Shown here piece after piece: positions 5,644 to 15,439 of a stretch of 25,544 bases of DNA. Below the pieces are notes generated by a model. It was not told the origin of the DNA, searched no databases, and worked only from the letters and a program-made list of their open reading frames with translations. Position 1 is the stretch's first letter, and every line of letters begins with the position of its first letter. The DNA comes from a virus. Its lineage: Duplodnaviria > Caudoviricetes. A program made the position numbers and the translations under genes. The DNA lies in IMG/VR virus record IMGVR_UViG_3300020352_000034, positions 1-25,544 of that record; one strand, 5' to 3'.

Positions 5644-6057
5644 TTAAGAAATTTTGATTTCTTGAGGTTTGTCTTCCTCAGGCACAATTCTCTCTAAACT
5701 AACAATCAAAATACCATTCTTCATATCTGCACCCTTAACGATTATATCGTCTGCAAGTGTGAATGACCTTTTGAATGAACGAGAAGCAAGTCCTTGGTGG
5801 ACATACTCTTTTGATTCAGTATCTTGTTCTCCCTCGATAATTAGTTTCTCTTTCTCTTTAGAGATAGAAACCTCTTTCTTATCGAACCCAGCCACTGCCA
5901 TTTCAATTTGGAAATTTTCCTCATCGATTTTTACAATGTTGTAAGGTGGATAGTTTGAACTAGAATGTGTATCTGCACGTTCTAATAGTTGTAGAGTTCT
6001 GTCGAACCCGATTGCGAATGGGAATGATTTCCCGAAGACATCATCATAGATAGTCAT
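5644..6057 (-). CDS. hsp20: Small heat shock protein Hsp20 (IbpA-like)
   Basis: IGFDR, NYPPYNIVK, IEMAVAGF, YVHQGLASRSFKRSFTLAD, ADMKNGILIVSLERIVPEE; AAGGAG RBS. Confidence 0.95.
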   Translation of the reverse strand: MTIYDDVFGKSFPFAIGFDRTLQLLERADTHSSSNYPPYNIVKIDEENFQIEMAVAGFDKKEVSISKEKEKLIIEGEQDTESKEYVHQGLASRSFKRSFTLADDIIVKGADMKNGILIVSLERIVPEEDKPQEIKIS

Positions 6058-6063
6058 AGTTTT

Positions 6064-6116
6064 CTCCTTTATTAAGCAAGTTTATATTATTACCTAACCC
6101 CTATTGGGCATTAGGT
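6064..6116 (-). promoter_or_regulatory. ROSE-like RNA thermometer in the hsp20 5' UTR
   Basis: CUUGCUU-AAUA-AAGGAG: the U(U/C)GCU motif pairs with the SD leaving a bulged G; preceded by hairpin ACCUAA..CCC-AAUA-GGG..UUAGGU. Confidence 0.6.
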
Positions 6117-6211
6117 GTAGAGAACCGAGCTCTTTTGAAGAAATGGGGTCACTAGATGTCGGCGTTGCCCAATCCTAGTTCCAAATCCGAGCTCTTTTGA
6201 AGTTCTCGTAC
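6117..6211 (-). ncRNA. Putative structured RNA with two identical 16-nt boxes (two-fold symmetric rod)
   Basis: Direct repeat CCGAGCTCTTTTGAAG at 6125-6140 and 6187-6202; closing stem GAGAAC/GTTCTC; inner stem ACTAG/CTAGT; starts ~6 nt after a TATAAATA box. Confidence 0.6.
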
Positions 6212-6216
6212 AATGG

Positions 6217-6224
6217 TATTTATA
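6217..6224 (-). promoter_or_regulatory. T4 gp55-type late promoter
   Basis: Exact TATAAATA on the minus strand in intergenic DNA. Confidence 0.65.
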
Positions 6225-6237
6225 ACACCATACTACT

Positions 6238-6269
6238 ATTATAAGGACTTTTTCTGAAATTTCAAGGGG
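6238..6269 (-). promoter_or_regulatory. Host-type promoter upstream of hsp20 (sigma32-like -35; could also be sigma70)
   Basis: CCCCTTGAAA-N13-CCTTATAAT; also readable as TTGAAA-N16-TATAAT. Confidence 0.5.
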
Positions 6270-6272
6270 TTT

Positions 6273-6866
6273 TTATCTTTTTTTGCAATATTTTTTTGCA
6301 TCACCTATTTGGTCAATGTTATTTGCAACTACTATGGACATAAGAAAGTTCATTTCGTTAAAGACTTCTACAGTTAAATTACCTTCTCTCCTATCCATTT
6401 CTAGAGCAGGAGTAAGAATTGCAGTCTTAACAAAGAACATTCTACCTACTGAGGGGGACTCTCCTACAATCGGATTTAGTTCTTTTACACAATCGTATTG
6501 AAGTCCACGATATGTAGAATAGATATCTAACAATTGTAGAGTGTAGAATGTAGTCCACTGAAGCCTACTAGGTTCTTCAGATAGTGTAAACCACGACTGG
6601 TTCTGTCTTTCCTTTAACTGTGATTGAATCAACTTTTGTGAATGTTCGGTTTGGACACTGGAGATAAGTTTGGTGTCCCAACAACACGTCAACCCCATCA
6701 TAATTTCTTGTTTGTCCTTCGAGTCTAGCACCAAGGTTGACGGCATCTCCAATGACGGAATAGTCAAATCTAAGTTCTGACCCCATGTTTCCAACGATAC
6801 ACTCACCAGTATTAATCCCAATACCCACGTTAATGGGTGGAAGACCGAGTGGTTTAAGTTCTTCAT
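6273..6866 (-). CDS. Hypothetical membrane or exported protein (DUF5658-like C-terminal half); start uncertain
   Basis: LQLLDIYSTYRGL...ELNPIVG motif; the 5' ~290 nt overlap the cyclase gene in another frame. Confidence 0.6.
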   Translation of the reverse strand: MKNLNHSVFHPLTWVLGLILVSVSLETWGQNLDLTIPSLEMPSTLVLDSKDKQEIMMGLTCCWDTKLISSVQTEHSQKLIQSQLKERQNQSWFTLSEEPSRLQWTTFYTLQLLDIYSTYRGLQYDCVKELNPIVGESPSVGRMFFVKTAILTPALEMDRREGNLTVEVFNEMNFLMSIVVANNIDQIGDAKKYCKKR

Positions 6867-8415
6867 TGAGTTCCTTGGTTGCGATTAATATTTCTTCTGC
6901 AGACTTGACTGCCATCTCGGCGTGGTCGGGACAATCTAAGGGTGCATTCCAAAAACTCATAATACAATCACCCATGTATTTGTCGATTGTTCCATTATTA
7001 TTTAGTATTATCTTTGTTTGCATGTCAAGAAATTTGTTGATAAGTTCTACTAATCCTTCGGGGTCATCTTGTTTCATGTAGTGTTCTGATATGGGGGTGA
7101 ATCCACATATGTCCATAAACATGAATGTAAGTTCCTTTCTATCTCCACCTAGTTTAAGTAAATCGGGATTCTCTGCAAGTTGGTCAACCATGTCGGGAGA
7201 TAAATACTTTTGGAACTGCTTCTTAATTTCTTCTTTGAGTTTGTAGGTTGTATAGTATTGATTGAAAGAGGCATGACCAAAAACAATTAAGGAGGCAATT
7301 GATGAAAAGAAGGTATCGAAAAGAACGAGACTTGAAGTCCAAATATAATAACTCCCACCCACCTGAAGTCCTACAAGTGTTAGACTCATTATCCCCGAAA
7401 GAATTGTGGGAAGCTTGTAAACCATCAGAAGTATCAATACTAGAACTATCGAAAGAAGAACAATCTCAAGTAATTCAAGATAGTAGGATTGTTGTATTTG
7501 AACTCCTGACAAGACGGTTTGGATATGGTTCGCTTGTACTTCGTGAGGATACAATACACCCACTGGAGTTGAAACTGGATTATTCAATCCCTCTGCAGTC
7601 AAACCCCATATCAGAATTTTATTAGTAAGATTTAGATTAGGTAGGTCTACTGCAGAAACCCGTTGGAACTCATTCCAATAGGTCACCATAACATCACTCG
7701 TTGCAGTGGTGGTGATTGGTTTGTCTCTACCCATTCTTACCCACTCTACTCCGACTTCTGTAATTTTAGTTTGGTATGAAGGTTGGTCTTTTAATGCACG
7801 AAGTGTTTCTAGTGCAAGAGACGGATATACCTGTTCGTTTGCAGTGACGATTAAAGGGATAGACCTAGTTGTCCCATCAAAGTTTGATGTTCCACTAACA
7901 CTAGGTGTTGCAACAGTGACCCCAACTCCGTAAGTATTGTCCTGAAGTATCCTGATAGGACTTGAAATTCCTGAGAAGTTCCATAGATGGTCTGTTGCCT
8001 TTCCACCCCCAAATGTAGAGTTTCCTACGAAGGGTGCAGAACCAGTGTCTTTTTGAATGGTAGGTGCAGAGGATAAAATTGTTAATCTGTTGATTAATCC
8101 TTCTGCAAAGATTTCGTCTTCTCCTGAATTTCTATCAGGTTGATTGAAGAGTTGAGTGAAAACATGTGTGTTAGTGTAATGAGTGTCAAGCAGGATATCC
8201 CTATAGATACTACGTTTGATAGGATACTGTCCAAACACTTCAAGTGACTTCTCGTCTATGTCTACTAAGACAATGTCATCTACCTGAACTATTTCCTGAC
8301 TCTGATGAAGAACATCAAAGTATGACCACTTGATATTTTCTACAAGATATGGAGACCAAATTTTAAGTCCTACAAATACACCGATTGTGATGAGGACTGT
8401 TTTCCAACTATACAC
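6577..8415 (-). CDS. CHASE2-domain class III adenylate cyclase
   Basis: N-terminal TM, CHASE2 (IVLVDIDEKSL..FGQYP..RS), three TM helices, catalytic domain with FMDICGFT, DKYMGDCIM and RFDYSVIGDAVNLGARLEG (both metal Asp; Lys/Asp adenine specificity; Asn/Arg). Confidence 0.93.
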   Translation of the reverse strand: MYSWKTVLITIGVFVGLKIWSPYLVENIKWSYFDVLHQSQEIVQVDDIVLVDIDEKSLEVFGQYPIKRSIYRDILLDTHYTNTHVFTQLFNQPDRNSGEDEIFAEGLINRLTILSSAPTIQKDTGSAPFVGNSTFGGGKATDHLWNFSGISSPIRILQDNTYGVGVTVATPSVSGTSNFDGTTRSIPLIVTANEQVYPSLALETLRALKDQPSYQTKITEVGVEWVRMGRDKPITTTATSDVMVTYWNEFQRVSAVDLPNLNLTNKILIWGLTAEGLNNPVSTPVGVLYPHEVQANHIQTVLSGVQIQQSYYLELLEIVLLSIVLVLILLMVYKLPTILSGIMSLTLVGLQVGGSYYIWTSSLVLFDTFFSSIASLIVFGHASFNQYYTTYKLKEEIKKQFQKYLSPDMVDQLAENPDLLKLGGDRKELTFMFMDICGFTPISEHYMKQDDPEGLVELINKFLDMQTKIILNNNGTIDKYMGDCIMSFWNAPLDCPDHAEMAVKSAEEILIATKELNEELKPLGLPPINVGIGINTGECIVGNMGSELRFDYSVIGDAVNLGARLEGQTRNYDGVDVLLGHQTYLQCPNRTFTKVDSITVKGKTEPVVVYTI

Positions 8416-10738: not shown

Positions 10739-11426
10739 TAGAAGTCACGAAAGACACATCAATAATACCACTACACAATGAACCACTTGGACAACCAGCA
10801 TCTGAACCACTCTTCTGAATGATGTCGATGTCGTTTGTTGAACCAGTTAGAACTGCAGTGATTTTGTTATCAGATGCATCAGCTTGGATTGTGTTGATAT
10901 CATTTGATGAACCATTAACAGTCCAGTTCCAAACTGCATTATCACTATCTATTTTAGTAGTGAATACGTTTGATGAACCATCTAAGTCTAAGTCCCAGTT
11001 AAGATATTCTGCAGATGCATCATATCCGATATCAATATCGAATGTGTTTGATGAACCATCTATTGTTCCTAACATATTTAAATAATCAGCACTACCAACA
11101 TATCCTACATTCCAGTCCATTGAGTTTGAATCACCAGTAAAAGTTAAATCTACTGTAGCATTATCTGCAATGAATGGGCCGTATAATTTATTTGAGTCTC
11201 CGTCCTGTAATAGTGTTAAACTATTAGTTGCACCAGTCAAAATCATATCAATCGATGAACTTGAAAAATCATCTCCACCAAGTTTGTTTGCATAACCTTT
11301 TTGAGTTATGTTCAAAGTTAAGTTGTCACCTGACTGTTGTATAAAAATCTCGTTATCATCTGCAGCTGCAGATACGAAACCAGTTAACCCTAATGATAAA
11401 CATAATAAAAGAAGTTTATTCTTCAT
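10698..11426 (-). CDS. Curlin-like (CsgA/CsgB-type) secreted repeat protein
   Basis: Signal peptide; ~23-28 aa repeats ending in G-x-S-N (QDGDSN, TGDSN, DGSSN, DGSSN, NGSSN, TGSTN); directly after csgG. Confidence 0.75.
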   Translation of the reverse strand: MKNKLLLLCLSLGLTGFVSAAADDNEIFIQQSGDNLTLNITQKGYANKLGGDDFSSSSIDMILTGATNSLTLLQDGDSNKLYGPFIADNATVDLTFTGDSNSMDWNVGYVGSADYLNMLGTIDGSSNTFDIDIGYDASAEYLNWDLDLDGSSNVFTTKIDSDNAVWNWTVNGSSNDINTIQADASDNKITAVLTGSTNDIDIIQKSGSDAGCPSGSLCSGIIDVSFVTSNADIDIVQKDSND

Positions 11427-12300
11427 TTGTTTTTTCCTCTATTTCCCAAAAACCTCTATCGTGTCCTTGGTATATTAATTCTAAGACAGCAAGTTCGATT
11501 GCAGAACGAGTCGCTTTTGTGACTCCTTCATTCTCTGCTACACCATCTTCTATTTCAACAAGTTGTGTATCCATATCCACAAACTTGAAAACATCATAAC
11601 CACCACCAACTGACAATATTGTCTTGGTAGTCTGCACATTAAGTAAAATTTCACCTGTAAGTGTTGAGATTCCTCTTAAACTTACAGTCACTATATCTCT
11701 TCTATATGAACGTGATGTTCCTACACCAAGTGTTCTTGCACCTCGTCCACCACTTTCAATGTTAGTGTCATAACCAATTATCCCACCATCAAGTAGGATA
11801 CCAGCAAATAAGAGAGGTTGGATTCCTGTTGGGGAATCTTCATTACCTTCTTGATTTGCAAAATCTTCTCTTGCACTTCGTATGATTTGTCTCTCTCTTA
11901 CAAGTGCATCTAAATTTGTTCTCTCTACTACTCTAAACCATTTACCATTTCCAGCAGTCTTCAATGCATCAATCAAAAATGATTCTGCACCTTGGGTGAC
12001 TGCAGTTGAGAATGATGCAACTCCGTCCATTCTCTTCCTTTGTCCTGTCTTATCTATATAAGAATACACTGCAACAATAGGCATTGTCTCAGCAGGTGGT
12101 AAGTCTGCAAGTTCTTGATAGGTTGGTATCTTCACAACCTCTGCATTTTCAACACAAGTAAATGGTATTGCCTTTTCAACAAGAGTCTTAACATCTACAA
12201 TGTTTGGGTCACAATTACTTGAATCTCTATTCATAGTGGGAACACTTGCACAACTACTGGCAAGTAAGACTGCAAGTCCCACTGATAAAAAATTCTTCAT
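11416..12300 (-). CDS. csgG: Curli secretion channel CsgG (outer membrane lipoprotein)
   Basis: Lipobox LASSC; VAVYSYIDKTGQRK, FSTAVTQGA, WFRVVERTNLDALVRERQIIR, GGIIGYDTNIESGGRGA, YRRDIVTVSLR. Confidence 0.93.
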   Translation of the reverse strand: MKNFLSVGLAVLLASSCASVPTMNRDSSNCDPNIVDVKTLVEKAIPFTCVENAEVVKIPTYQELADLPPAETMPIVAVYSYIDKTGQRKRMDGVASFSTAVTQGAESFLIDALKTAGNGKWFRVVERTNLDALVRERQIIRSAREDFANQEGNEDSPTGIQPLLFAGILLDGGIIGYDTNIESGGRGARTLGVGTSRSYRRDIVTVSLRGISTLTGEILLNVQTTKTILSVGGGYDVFKFVDMDTQLVEIEDGVAENEGVTKATRSAIELAVLELIYQGHDRGFWEIEEKTNEE

Positions 12301-12753
12301 TTAAAAACTTCCAGTTCCTACTGGTATATCTAAAGTTGTTGTCGTTCCGTCTTGTGATACAATTGTCAATCTAATAAATTCTGCACCATCTTCTCCAACC
12401 AATTTTTCGTATGTGACTGTATTCCCTTCTATTGAGAAAACACCATATGATGCAGCTTCTCCATTAGAGAACATATTTTCTACTAACTGTTTTGCTATCT
12501 GAGCGTAGATTCTACTTTCGACATTTCTTAAAAATTTTGCAAGGGTAGTGTTATCTGCTTCCCTTTCTGCTTTTGCAATTCTATCTTCTATGTCTTGTGC
12601 TATCTTATCACGTCTTGATTTCTCTTGGTTCTCAATCGTAAGATAATGTGAACTCTGTCCTATTCCACTGAAGGAAGGACTTTTGAATTTGTGTACTATT
12701 TCGTCAGCACTAACACTGGTCGAGAATAGTAGTATCAATAATATCTTTTTCAT
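12301..12753 (-). CDS. csgF: Curli assembly protein CsgF
   Basis: Signal peptide then EIVHKFKSPSFSG (cf. the CsgF N-terminus F.F.NP.FGG); C-terminal TIVSQDGTTTTLDIP; immediately upstream of csgG. Confidence 0.85.
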   Translation of the reverse strand: MKKILLILLFSTSVSADEIVHKFKSPSFSGIGQSSHYLTIENQEKSRRDKIAQDIEDRIAKAEREADNTTLAKFLRNVESRIYAQIAKQLVENMFSNGEAASYGVFSIEGNTVTYEKLVGEDGAEFIRLTIVSQDGTTTTLDIPVGTGSF

Positions 12754-13555
12754 ATACATTTACCGTTTCTATTATATTAATCCCTTTATCAAAGTTCCTA
12801 ATATCAGTCTTCCATTTATTACTTGACCATGGTGATTGTTTACCTGGCCAATAACATGTCTCACACCTATCTAAAGGTTCTTCACGATGTACATAATTAT
12901 CAATATCTTTTGCATTAGACCAATCAACACCTTCAATCCTTTCGTTCATAGTGATGGTGCAACGATATACACCTTCTTTTGATAATGATTTACAACTATT
13001 TTTTTGATAACAATTATTCCAATTGTCCCAAATACTATAATCCATACCATCTATCTTCTCACCAAAACGAACAAATGAATCCTGTTCCCAATAGTCTACT
13101 TTTGTGTTTGTAGATAATCGGTCGTTCAATCCACTTCGTCTCATTGATTCTCTTATATCGCCTAATTGTTTATAAACTGATATAATGATTCTATCATAAC
13201 TTTTGAGAATATCTATAATCTCACTAGTTATGTTTAGTCCATTGGTCACAATGGCTAGTGTTTCATAACACTCTTTATTTTCTCTAAGGTACTCTGTAAT
13301 TTCTTTAAGTTCCTTGTGTGTTGTAGGTTCTCCACCTAGAACTTTAAGTTCTTCAACACATAAATCTAATCGGTTAAAGTTTTCTACAATGTCTTTTACA
13401 TCGTCTAACTTTAAGTAGGGTATTGTTATCTTACCCTTAGTATCATAATCTCCACCGTAATCTAAAACACTACAACCAGTGCAGTGTAAATTACAAGCGT
13501 TAGTTATGTATAAATCATAACTACCTTTTAGTAGTTTTCTTTTTTTCATTTTCAC
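12710..13555 (-). CDS. Radical SAM protein with Cys-containing C-terminal (twitch/SPASM-like) region
   Basis: CNLHCTGC (CxxxCxxC), LGGEPT, VTNG; later NCYQKNSC, YRC and RCETC. Confidence 0.88.
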   Translation of the reverse strand: MKMKKRKLLKGSYDLYITNACNLHCTGCSVLDYGGDYDTKGKITIPYLKLDDVKDIVENFNRLDLCVEELKVLGGEPTTHKELKEITEYLRENKECYETLAIVTNGLNITSEIIDILKSYDRIIISVYKQLGDIRESMRRSGLNDRLSTNTKVDYWEQDSFVRFGEKIDGMDYSIWDNWNNCYQKNSCKSLSKEGVYRCTITMNERIEGVDWSNAKDIDNYVHREEPLDRCETCYWPGKQSPWSSNKWKTDIRNFDKGINIIETVNVYEKDIIDTTILDQC

Positions 13556-14643: not shown

Positions 14644-15054
14644 TTAGGTATTTGTACTACCAATTGAGTATTTAGTGGTTAGTTTCCAGTCCTTTTTATC
14701 TTTGTATGGTATGATTTTAACTTGTGATAAGGGTACTGTAGGGGTTTCTATTGTAGTTGGCACTACAACAGTTAATAGTTTCCATTGTTGTAAAAGATTA
14801 CATATAGTGTTTCTTCTACCCAAGTCACTCTCTTCTATAGTTGTCGGTTTACCGTCTAACTGGAATAACTCTTTAAAATGGACTATGTAGTATTTACCTC
14901 TTTTGTGTAATATGTGACATGATTGAAATAATTCTTGCTCACGTCTTGAGGCAATACCGATTCTTGATAGGGTTTCTCTTATTTTTAGAAAGTCGTCTCG
15001 TTCTGCGAAGGTCACTTCAACTAACTTTTCGACTAATTGGTCTTGGTCATTCAT
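14644..15054 (-). CDS. regA: Translational repressor RegA
   Basis: DDFLKIRETLSRIGIAS, LFQSCHILHKRGKYYIVHFKELF; T4 synteny 45-44-62-regA. Confidence 0.96.
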   Translation of the reverse strand: MNDQDQLVEKLVEVTFAERDDFLKIRETLSRIGIASRREQELFQSCHILHKRGKYYIVHFKELFQLDGKPTTIEESDLGRRNTICNLLQQWKLLTVVVPTTIETPTVPLSQVKIIPYKDKKDWKLTTKYSIGSTNT

Positions 15055-15439
15055 TATCTTTTCCACCAGTTTTCATTCTTTTTTTCATGTTTCGGACATC
15101 ACTATCTGATAATACACTCATGTAGTCTTTAGCTTCTTTTGTACTTATCTCGTAGTATTGTTTTATGACATCAAGTTTTTTACTCGTGTATGGTTTTTGC
15201 CATTTAGAGAACCTTTGTCTTTTCCTTAAAGTATTTAGGAAAAAAAGGTATTGAAGACGGTTTTCCGTACCGTGCCTGATGTTCATTTCATTAGAAAAAA
15301 AGACTGAATCTTGGTGATAAGATAAAGCCTTGTTAGTTAGAAATGGTGCATATGATTTCTCTTCGATTTCGTCAAACATAATATTCTTCTTATCAGAAGA
15401 AACGGATTTTACAAAATCAAAGGGATTTGTTTTAGACAT
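15047..15439 (-). CDS. gp62: Clamp loader small subunit gp62
   Basis: NPFDFVKS, YAPFLTNKALS, LQYLFFLNTLRKRQRFSKW; synteny. Confidence 0.92.
   Translation of the reverse strand: MSKTNPFDFVKSVSSDKKNIMFDEIEEKSYAPFLTNKALSYHQDSVFFSNEMNIRHGTENRLQYLFFLNTLRKRQRFSKWQKPYTSKKLDVIKQYYEISTKEAKDYMSVLSDSDVRNMKKRMKTGGKDNE

Follow-up and report, generated by a model that had tools for sequence, protein, structure and literature searches.

The leader of hsp20, a small heat-shock gene carried by a virus of the Caudoviricetes (Duplodnaviria), contains a symmetric RNA element that we refer to as the rod. The gene lies in a 25,544-nucleotide (nt) stretch of DNA, hereafter the window, which is the whole of IMG/VR record IMGVR_UViG_3300020352_000034 (25.5 kb, estimated to be 14% complete), and the rod occupies positions 6117–6211 on its minus strand. 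On the hsp20 sense strand, the rod forms a conserved RNA structure with pseudo-two-fold symmetry and covarying pairs. Our preferred reading of its function, held at a confidence a little below even, is that it may be a cis-acting domain with two sites at which a dimeric or oligomeric RNA-binding protein docks; that this protein would be the phage Hsp20 itself is proposed by analogy with a bacterial system, and with considerably more doubt.

The rod is built around an exact 16-mer, CTTCAAAAGAGCTCGG, present in two minus-strand copies (6202 to 6187 and 6140 to 6125) whose starts lie 62 nt apart and each of which contains GAGCTC; a first-pass annotation made from the letters alone had pointed out this repeat, and a sequence scan recovered it as described. 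With up to three mismatches allowed, CTTCAAAAGAGCTCGG matched twice in the window against 0.11 matches expected, and one of 100 shuffles gave two matches. The minimum-energy fold likewise reproduced the minus-strand rod that the same annotation had drawn, in which the GAGCUC hexamers pair with each other, GAGAAC/GUUCUC closes the structure and ACUAG/CUAGU forms the tip. Along the sense strand, the layout comprises a helix (P1), a 6-nt bulge, the 6-base-pair (bp) GAGCUC helix (P2), a second 6-nt bulge, a further helix (P3) and a variable tip.

Within this layout, the 5′ strand of P1, GAGAACU (6207–6201), pairs with its 3′ strand, GGUUCUC (6126–6120), in both the fold and the alignment described below, and the helix can be extended by pairing GUA (6209–6211) with UAC (6117–6119). 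Box 1 (CUUCAAAAGAGCUCGG, 6187–6202) supplies the C and U that close P1, the bulge UCAAAA (6195–6200), the 5′ strand of P2 (GAGCUC, 6189–6194) and the GG that opens P3, while box 2 (CUUCAAAAGAGCUCGG, 6125–6140) supplies the C and U that close P3, the bulge UCAAAA (6133–6138), the 3′ strand of P2 (GAGCUC, 6127–6132) and the GG that opens the P1 3′ strand, so that P2 is formed by the hexamer of one box pairing with that of the other. According to the fold, the remainder of P3 and the variable apical domain fill the interval from 6141 to 6186, including the tip helix P4, in which ACUAG (6179–6175) pairs with CUAGU (6155–6151); P3 carries two U.U mismatches in this window that are repaired in relatives. 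The identical bulges that had been proposed for the two arms are present, but they are predicted to consist of the six letters UCAAAA and not of UUCAAAA, since the first U of each box is taken up in a G.U pair.

Folding energies depended on the strand. The sense fold of 6117–6211 reached −29.6 kcal/mol (z −2.84), with none of 200 shuffles as good, whereas the antisense fold of the same interval reached −24.4 kcal/mol (z −0.89) and was equalled by 38 of 200 shuffles; the sense fold of a 126-nt stretch gave −33.9 kcal/mol (z −3.06).

The rod is found in many uncultured marine T4-like phage contigs. In the viral collection, the exact 16-mer occurs in 82 stretches, and in nearly all of them a second box is present, either identical or different at box position 4 alone. 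Spacings between the boxes were 30, 32, 35, 37, 38, 40, 50, 62, 63 and 93 nt, and the forms observed range in length from 70 to 135 nt. Aligned with MAFFT, 31 distinct rods had 95.6% of cells paired and changes on both sides in 10 of the 26 pairs, a result that none of 500 shuffles reached; when the register was slid, at most 48.9% of cells were paired. A second alignment fitted 35 rods to R1, a covariance model built from these rods that drew in more distant ones, and there 16 of 26 pairs change on both sides, a count that leans towards the model. Covariation among hsp20-upstream regions of related phages, which the first-pass annotation had suggested looking for, is present in both alignments. 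In the 31-rod alignment, for example, P4 pair 44–66 is U-A in 11 sequences and A-U in nine.

The outer parts of the rod drift freely. P1, four of whose seven pairs change on both sides in the 31-rod alignment, takes many forms, among them GAGAAC/GUUCUC, GUGAC/GUCAU, AUAGUUC/GGACUAU, UUGAAUC/GGAUUUAA and UUAAGUC/GGACUUAA; P3, the tip and the spacing vary as well, and relatives have the whole apical domain swapped for short hairpins. The closing C-G and U.G pairs on both sides of the core never vary. Two G.U pairs are invariant in all 31 rods and G.U also occurs at other positions, which marks the sense strand of hsp20 as the one that folds. Among 42 distinct twin rods, the paired hexamers are GAGCUC/GAGCUC in 39 and GAGCAC/GUGCUC in three, with no uncompensated combination. 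The pattern used for this count fixes TT.AAAA and GG and leaves the hexamer and position 1 free, and a 43rd pair was excluded as an artefact of a cut locus; apart from the GAGCAC/GUGCUC flip, every box letter that the pattern leaves free is invariant, and position 4, a wildcard, varies freely.

The hsp20 gene (5644–6057, minus strand) encodes a 137-residue IbpA-type small heat-shock protein (Pfam HSP20, 7.8e-19) that is 40% identical to Escherichia coli IbpA and keeps an arginine at the column of IbpA R93; the interval from its promoters to its start codon holds the rod and a ROSE-like part. A sigma-70-like promoter, TTGAAA-16-TATAAT, is placed at 6238–6265 (minus strand) by consensus matching alone, with 11 of 12 consensus letters present, and a CCCCTTGAAA..TATAAT arrangement also precedes the rod or the ROSE part in relatives. 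From the sequence, a small hairpin insert, ATGGT..ACCAT (6212–6231, minus strand), carries in its loop a T4-late-type TATAAATA (6217–6224). The insert, found in one group of relatives, sits between the sigma-70-like −10 element and the rod; relatives without it have the rod directly after TATAAT. The window allele thus appears to combine an early-type promoter with a late-type one.

Box 1 starts 11–17 nt after TATAAT or 14 nt after TATAAATA, and one or the other of these elements lies within 45 nt upstream in 40 of 44 rod contexts. Placing +1 by standard promoter-to-start distances, these spacings put the beginning of P1 at about the expected transcription start, and we infer that transcription would start at the base of P1. 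The earlier proposal that the structure begins where a transcript from TATAAATA (6224 to 6217) should start agrees with this box-to-promoter spacing and predicted +1, although it had overlooked the sigma-70-like promoter further upstream.

Immediately downstream of the rod is a ROSE_3-like RNA thermometer (6052–6117, minus strand; Rfam RF02523), matched over the full model length with 37.6 bits (E 1.8e-6 in a 301-nt search), a score below the gathering threshold of 43. Its hairpin 1 spans 6092–6116, and its last hairpin, that of the Shine–Dalgarno (SD) sequence, pairs CUUGCUU (6074–6080) with AAGGAG (6064–6069) around one bulged G. The ROSE_3 model aligns to 6052–6117 only and leaves the rod outside; ROSE and ROSE_2 gave no match at E ≤ 10 in 6000–6300. 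In folds predicted between 10 and 45 °C, the SD hairpin is complete only at 10 °C, and the rod persists in predicted folds to 65 °C, which argues that the rod is not the melting element. A UUGCU/AGGAG hairpin precedes nearly all phage hsp20 genes inspected. A literature search on phage, hsp20 and RNA thermometer found no paper describing such a thermometer for a phage hsp20.

The rod behaves as an optional cassette, a property that the first-pass annotation had missed, as it had the adjoining ROSE-like thermometer. R1 scores the rod at 117.4 bits over 6113–6214, and positions 6117 and 6211 are the exact points at which RNA-library contigs depart from the window sequence, one of these contigs carrying the rod in another flank and one having the promoter part joined directly to a ROSE hairpin; the limits given in the first-pass annotation are therefore also those of the cassette. 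In a survey of hsp20 loci covering the best 80 of 598 confirmed stretches, R1 matched 26 loci (24 at E ≤ 1e-7, one at 3.5e-4 and one at 0.87), many of which had themselves contributed to the model.

Where it occurs, the rod is tied to hsp20. In 39 of the 44 distinct rod contexts, TYGCT..GGAG..ATG follows within 140 nt, the five exceptions being two cut loci, two long leaders and one leader in which another module intervenes. Shorter and half forms were the target of a metagenome scan, which retrieved 40 stretches with 28 distinct sequences, 18 of which we judged to be structured rods; hsp20 lies 77–350 nt downstream of 16 of these, including a long-leader lineage with a distant Hsp20, and the Hsp20s of the metagenome lineages are only 38–43% identical to E. 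coli IbpA. One of the two exceptions (L191) is on a contig that ends 422 nt after the rod, and the other (L125, identical to L209) is taken up below. R1 scores in the 20s are not proof by themselves, since loci judged unrelated reached 27.1 (L194), 24.2 (L169) and 22.6 bits (L206), and L125/L209 and L019 scored 26.5 and 25 bits, respectively; L125 was retained because its helices, bulge and second AGCUCGG follow the rod layout.

A multicopy mobile hairpin was considered as a source of the cassette. MITE-/PeSL-like cassettes are found in many copies at unrelated sites of one genome and show presence/absence polymorphism. Sharp-edged presence and absence is seen here, in near-identical loci with and without the rod. 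However, R1 found exactly one copy in each of five contigs of 94–140 kb, and we rejected this candidate.

Other leaders of the same gene carry further modules. In a second hsp20 lineage (L083, L100, L116, L176–L182, L190, L196, L199, L205 and L218–L225), leaders of 220–350 nt contain a conserved stretch of about 120 nt, ..GGTTACCCAACAAAGGAC..GATGGCAACA..ACACACTAAC.., between the rod and the ROSE part, together with upstream repeats CAAGG..ATCGTAAG... This stretch looks like another candidate structured RNA; three of these loci, scanned against Rfam, gave no match at E ≤ 0.01. In L028 and L044, a different hairpin module, GTGTAGAGAGTTCTAGG...CCTAGATACTTCTACAC, stands in the rod slot just upstream of the ROSE part, in L044 together with a rod, and the slot between promoter and thermometer accordingly looks modular.

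The rod matched none of the described families against which it was compared. Across the whole window, no Rfam family was found at gathering level, and the four matches at E ≤ 10 in 6000–6300 comprised the ROSE_3 element beside the rod and three noise hits, with none on the rod; 15 related loci searched at E ≤ 0.01 yielded tRNAs only. In three relatives, tRNA genes lie shortly after hsp20: L033 (708–777), L044 (1748–1817) and L133 (619–688), at 49–54 bits. A blastn search of 6050–6225 against cultured phages, an approach whose E limit short boxes alone would escape, matched only the SD and start region, for example that of the S-PM2 hsp20. The twin pattern occurred at eight places in the genome collection, seven of them unrelated tandem or coding repeats and one, L172, a phage-type locus on a 121-kb contig binned in a metagenome-assembled genome; no bacterial copy was found. 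In the literature library searched, the box sequence occurred in four papers, none of them relevant. One study of candidate structured RNAs in IMG/VR includes about 20 unnamed ‘DNAVirus_’ candidates no more than 25 bp upstream of hsp20/IbpA in marine viral contigs, the six largest of which, at 53–86 nt, correspond in size to the ROSE part and fall short of rod and ROSE combined (PMC10690425). The box sequence does not appear in the searchable supplementary tables of that study, which do not cover its alignments, so the rod may be listed there.

What, then, might the rod do? Because the core is fixed in sequence across lineages in which everything else has drifted, we take it to be read by something and not to act only as a hairpin: a plain stabilising hairpin would not need near-invariant boxes amid a varying P1, P3, tip and spacing. 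On this pattern, the boxes would be read by a trans-acting factor, presumably a protein, and not only by each other. An operator on which the product of the gene acts, or a sensor for a related signal, would be expected to show the near-exclusive link to hsp20 that the rod shows, whatever the promoter type or leader length.

In the docking model, the predicted 5′ end of the hsp20 message would be occupied by the rod as an optional domain, directly ahead of the ROSE-like thermometer, and the two bulges flanking the GAGCUC helix would make up a two-site platform for a dimeric or oligomeric RNA-binding protein. The phage IbpA-type Hsp20 is the predicted partner and would feed back on the translation or stability of its own message; the weak SD hairpin 50 nt downstream would serve as the thermosensor and the rod as a second, sequence-specific input. 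T4-type phages use RNA operators for gp32, gp43 and RegA. For the chaperone itself, a study on E. coli describes IbpA repressing its own translation by binding a thermometer-type 5′ untranslated region, with Arg93 essential (PMC10474464). All five phage Hsp20s that we aligned have arginine at this column, where IbpB has glutamine. The suggestion in the first-pass annotation that the element is a cis-regulator of hsp20 fits the sense-strand covariation, the predicted start position and the hsp20 link; its further suggestion, a symmetric ligand for a homodimeric protein, is a reasonable conjecture.

Several observations weigh against protein docking and against Hsp20 as the partner. Many loci were retrieved through the box itself, so the apparent invariance is inflated, partly by construction. 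Forms with a single bulge precede hsp20 in L083, L100 and L218, and two sites are thus not strictly needed. In four loci (L003–L006), Hsp20 is 99% identical to that of the window and the same promoters and ROSE part are present without the rod, the promoters being joined straight to the ROSE part; no protein change accompanies the presence or absence of the rod. The rod-bearing RNA-library contigs, which come from three runs (X16, X17 and X19), may derive from DNA; they have no joint within the rod and the cover of one run ends at 6073, and we attach no significance to either. In L125 (589–672; equal to L209), which is alone among the structured instances seen in lying away from hsp20, a one-bulge form makes up a terminator-like hairpin with a 10-bp stem and a T run. 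The hairpin follows a gp32-like single-strand-binding gene on a phage contig of higher G+C content, a place that does not fit an hsp20-specific feedback. Finally, in the E. coli study, repression depends on IbpA oligomers and a thermometer-like structure, not on a twin-box RNA (PMC10474464).

A possible but doubtful alternative to docking is a self-contained structural domain, in which the A-rich bulges would dock on neighbouring helices to give a compact 5′-terminal fold that needs no partner in trans, and which would guard the message against 5′-end-dependent decay or keep upstream sequence from disturbing the folding of the thermometer. In favour of this, the predicted +1 of both promoter types coincides with the beginning of P1, and the rod is predicted to be stable to 65 °C. 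The one change seen in P2 turns U-A into A-U; an exchange of this kind hardly alters the minor groove and would be compatible with A-minor docking. Extra 5′ hairpins are, moreover, a feature of long ROSE elements, with two to four stem-loops (PMC10474464). However, ROSE hairpin 1 starts at the predicted +1 in rod-less phages, so that a 5′ hairpin is already there, and while the unrelated modules in the L028/L044 slot fit a need for any hairpin, 16 invariant letters across distant lineages are left unexplained.

The possibility that the rod is a new class of RNA sensor, with a bulge-helix-bulge pocket for the phage chaperone or for a symmetric small molecule, is comparably doubtful. Its purely chemical version, a riboswitch, we consider unlikely: the two bulges would form a pseudo-two-fold pocket across the GAGCUC helix, an aptamer for a small molecule or ion that gives hsp20 a chemical input. 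Invariant unpaired letters framed by covarying helices, a dispensable tip and a place in the 5′ leader all suit an aptamer, and the window, like several relatives, has a sensor cyclase gene just upstream. Yet L025, L031 and L032 have the cyclase directly upstream and no rod, the core is small, no terminator follows, no conserved alternative pairing that could serve as an expression platform was seen by eye in the leaders compared, and pairing of the P1 3′ strand with the SD is possible only in rods of the GAGAAC type.

Quite improbable, in our view, is a processing site at which a dimeric endoribonuclease, acting like RNase III or in the manner of bulge-helix-bulge cleavage, would trim the leader or release the tip. 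The bulge-helix-bulge layout is two-fold symmetric and the tip sequence immaterial, and phage early messages are classic RNase III substrates; but RNase III needs no such sequence conservation, and no splicing-endonuclease homologue was found among the 27 open reading frames (ORFs) scanned in this record, itself 14% complete.

The two remaining readings are very improbable. A DNA element, either an operator with two repressor sites close behind the promoter or a cassette for recombination or mobility that has no role as RNA, would account for palindrome-holding direct repeats right after a promoter and for the sharp limits between presence and absence. GAGCAC in box 1 with GTGCTC in box 2, however, keeps the pairing while breaking both palindromes and the identity of the repeat; the spacing ranges from 30 to 93 nt without helical phasing; the invariant G.U pairs and the asymmetry of the sense and antisense folds point to one strand; and each of the five long contigs has a single copy. 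The compensated hexamer, the unphased spacing, the G.U pairs and the strand asymmetry together argue for a sense-strand RNA over a DNA operator. A decoy or antitoxin RNA acting in trans, as which the rod would be excised or would sponge up a host defence or toxin protein, draws only on the symmetry and strong box conservation, whereas the rod is single-copy, is not in tandem array and always stands in cis before hsp20 in the rod contexts surveyed. The first-pass annotation had proposed this idea, naming HEPN/AbiF-type and other type III toxins, and it found no support: no Rfam family, the abiF motif included, matches the rod even at E ≤ 10, there is no toxin neighbour, and no toxin-, HEPN- or Abi-like protein was found among 27 ORFs searched with Pfam or the 15 of them searched with PADLOC, in a record that holds 14% of a genome.

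Other regulatory readings of the leader were also tried and rejected. A sigma-32 promoter requires a G in the −35 consensus at a position that is mostly C or A in the rods, and the boxes are therefore not read as such a promoter. Sequestration of the SD by the P1 3′ strand relies on complementarity present only in the GAGAAC type and not in relatives with other forms of P1. Antitermination was set aside in turn, as no terminator-like site was found on the minus strand between 6057 and 1049.

To place the rod among known systems, we compared it with leader RNAs of related function and with RNAs of related layout. Like ROSE_3 (RF02523), the rod and ROSE part stand together in the 5′ leader of an IbpA-type small heat-shock gene and comprise several hairpins, and in the last of these the SD is paired with UUGCU and a G is left bulged, which is a feature of the neighbouring element and not of the rod; the rod itself sits where long ROSE elements have their extra 5′ hairpins. 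Unlike ROSE_3, whose model stops at 6117, it has invariant twin boxes and is predicted to be stable to 65 °C.

In layout, the rod resembles the archaeal bulge-helix-bulge of tRNA and rRNA introns, a 3-4-3 motif of 3-nt bulges and a 4-bp helix read by a dimeric enzyme: in both, bulges on opposite strands flank a short helix with pseudo-two-fold symmetry and the part beyond is free to vary. The rod is 6-6-6 with a fixed sequence, though, its host is bacterial, as the sigma-70-like promoter and T4-type genes indicate, and it shows no sign of bulge-helix-bulge-type cleavage or splicing. A likeness in layout also links the rod to RAT hairpins, which are bound by homodimers of the LicT/SacY/BglG antiterminators: both are quasi-symmetric hairpins of a leader and have two internal loops. 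There is, however, no CAT-PRD protein in the window and no overlapping terminator at the rod. With type III antitoxin RNAs and the abiF motif it shares being a repeated, structured, phage- or defence-related RNA; it differs in matching no model, having no toxin neighbour and carrying two boxes in one hairpin in place of tandem full units.

The self-repression of IbpA in gamma-proteobacteria offers the nearest regulatory logic, with an IbpA-type protein that has an essential arginine, a thermometer-type leader and feedback; as far as the available parts of that paper go, it involves oligomers, no twin-box RNA (R1 has no match in the E. coli ibpA region at E ≤ 0.01) and no phage case (PMC10474464). 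In function and place, the rod is thus closest to the extra 5′ hairpins of ROSE-type leaders, and in layout to bulge-helix-bulge or RAT hairpins. It is a member of none of these families, since the defining features that could be tested were absent from it or belonged to the neighbouring element; the rod is a well-supported RNA motif and stands as an orphan among the leader RNAs of small heat-shock genes.

All genes of the window are on the minus strand and include a T4-type replication module (gp43, gp45, gp44/62 and RegA) as well as auxiliary genes for a peroxiredoxin, HSP20, a CHASE2 cyclase similar to that of pelagiphage HTVC008M, IscU, CsgG/F and a deformylase. In the product of the cyclase gene (6577–8415, minus strand), a CHASE2 sensor domain is fused with a class III nucleotidyl cyclase; the gene resembles that of HTVC008M as well as the PADLOC PycC models. 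Its 3′ end overlaps an ORF of 197 residues (6273–6866) with a weak DUF5658 match, and the start of one or the other has probably been called too far upstream. Homologues of CsgG and CsgF, which function in curli secretion, and the translational repressor RegA are encoded at 11416–12759 and 14644–15066 (both minus strand).

Marine T4-like phages commonly carry small heat-shock genes as auxiliary genes, the control of which has been undescribed. The hsp20 leader studied here appears to combine a ROSE-like thermometer with an optional domain that has a near-invariant symmetric core, and this core looks like a recognition site. The rod is short and modular and comes with many natural variants, including compensated ones, as well as with rod-less alleles of the same leader. 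Should the rod bind the chaperone, IbpA-type feedback would extend to viruses; should it bind a ligand, it would represent a new aptamer class. If the RNA-sensor reading is true, a stolen heat-shock gene would have a second input, of proteostasis or of chemistry, on top of its thermometer, and the rod would be the first case described of a viral RNA operator for a chaperone.

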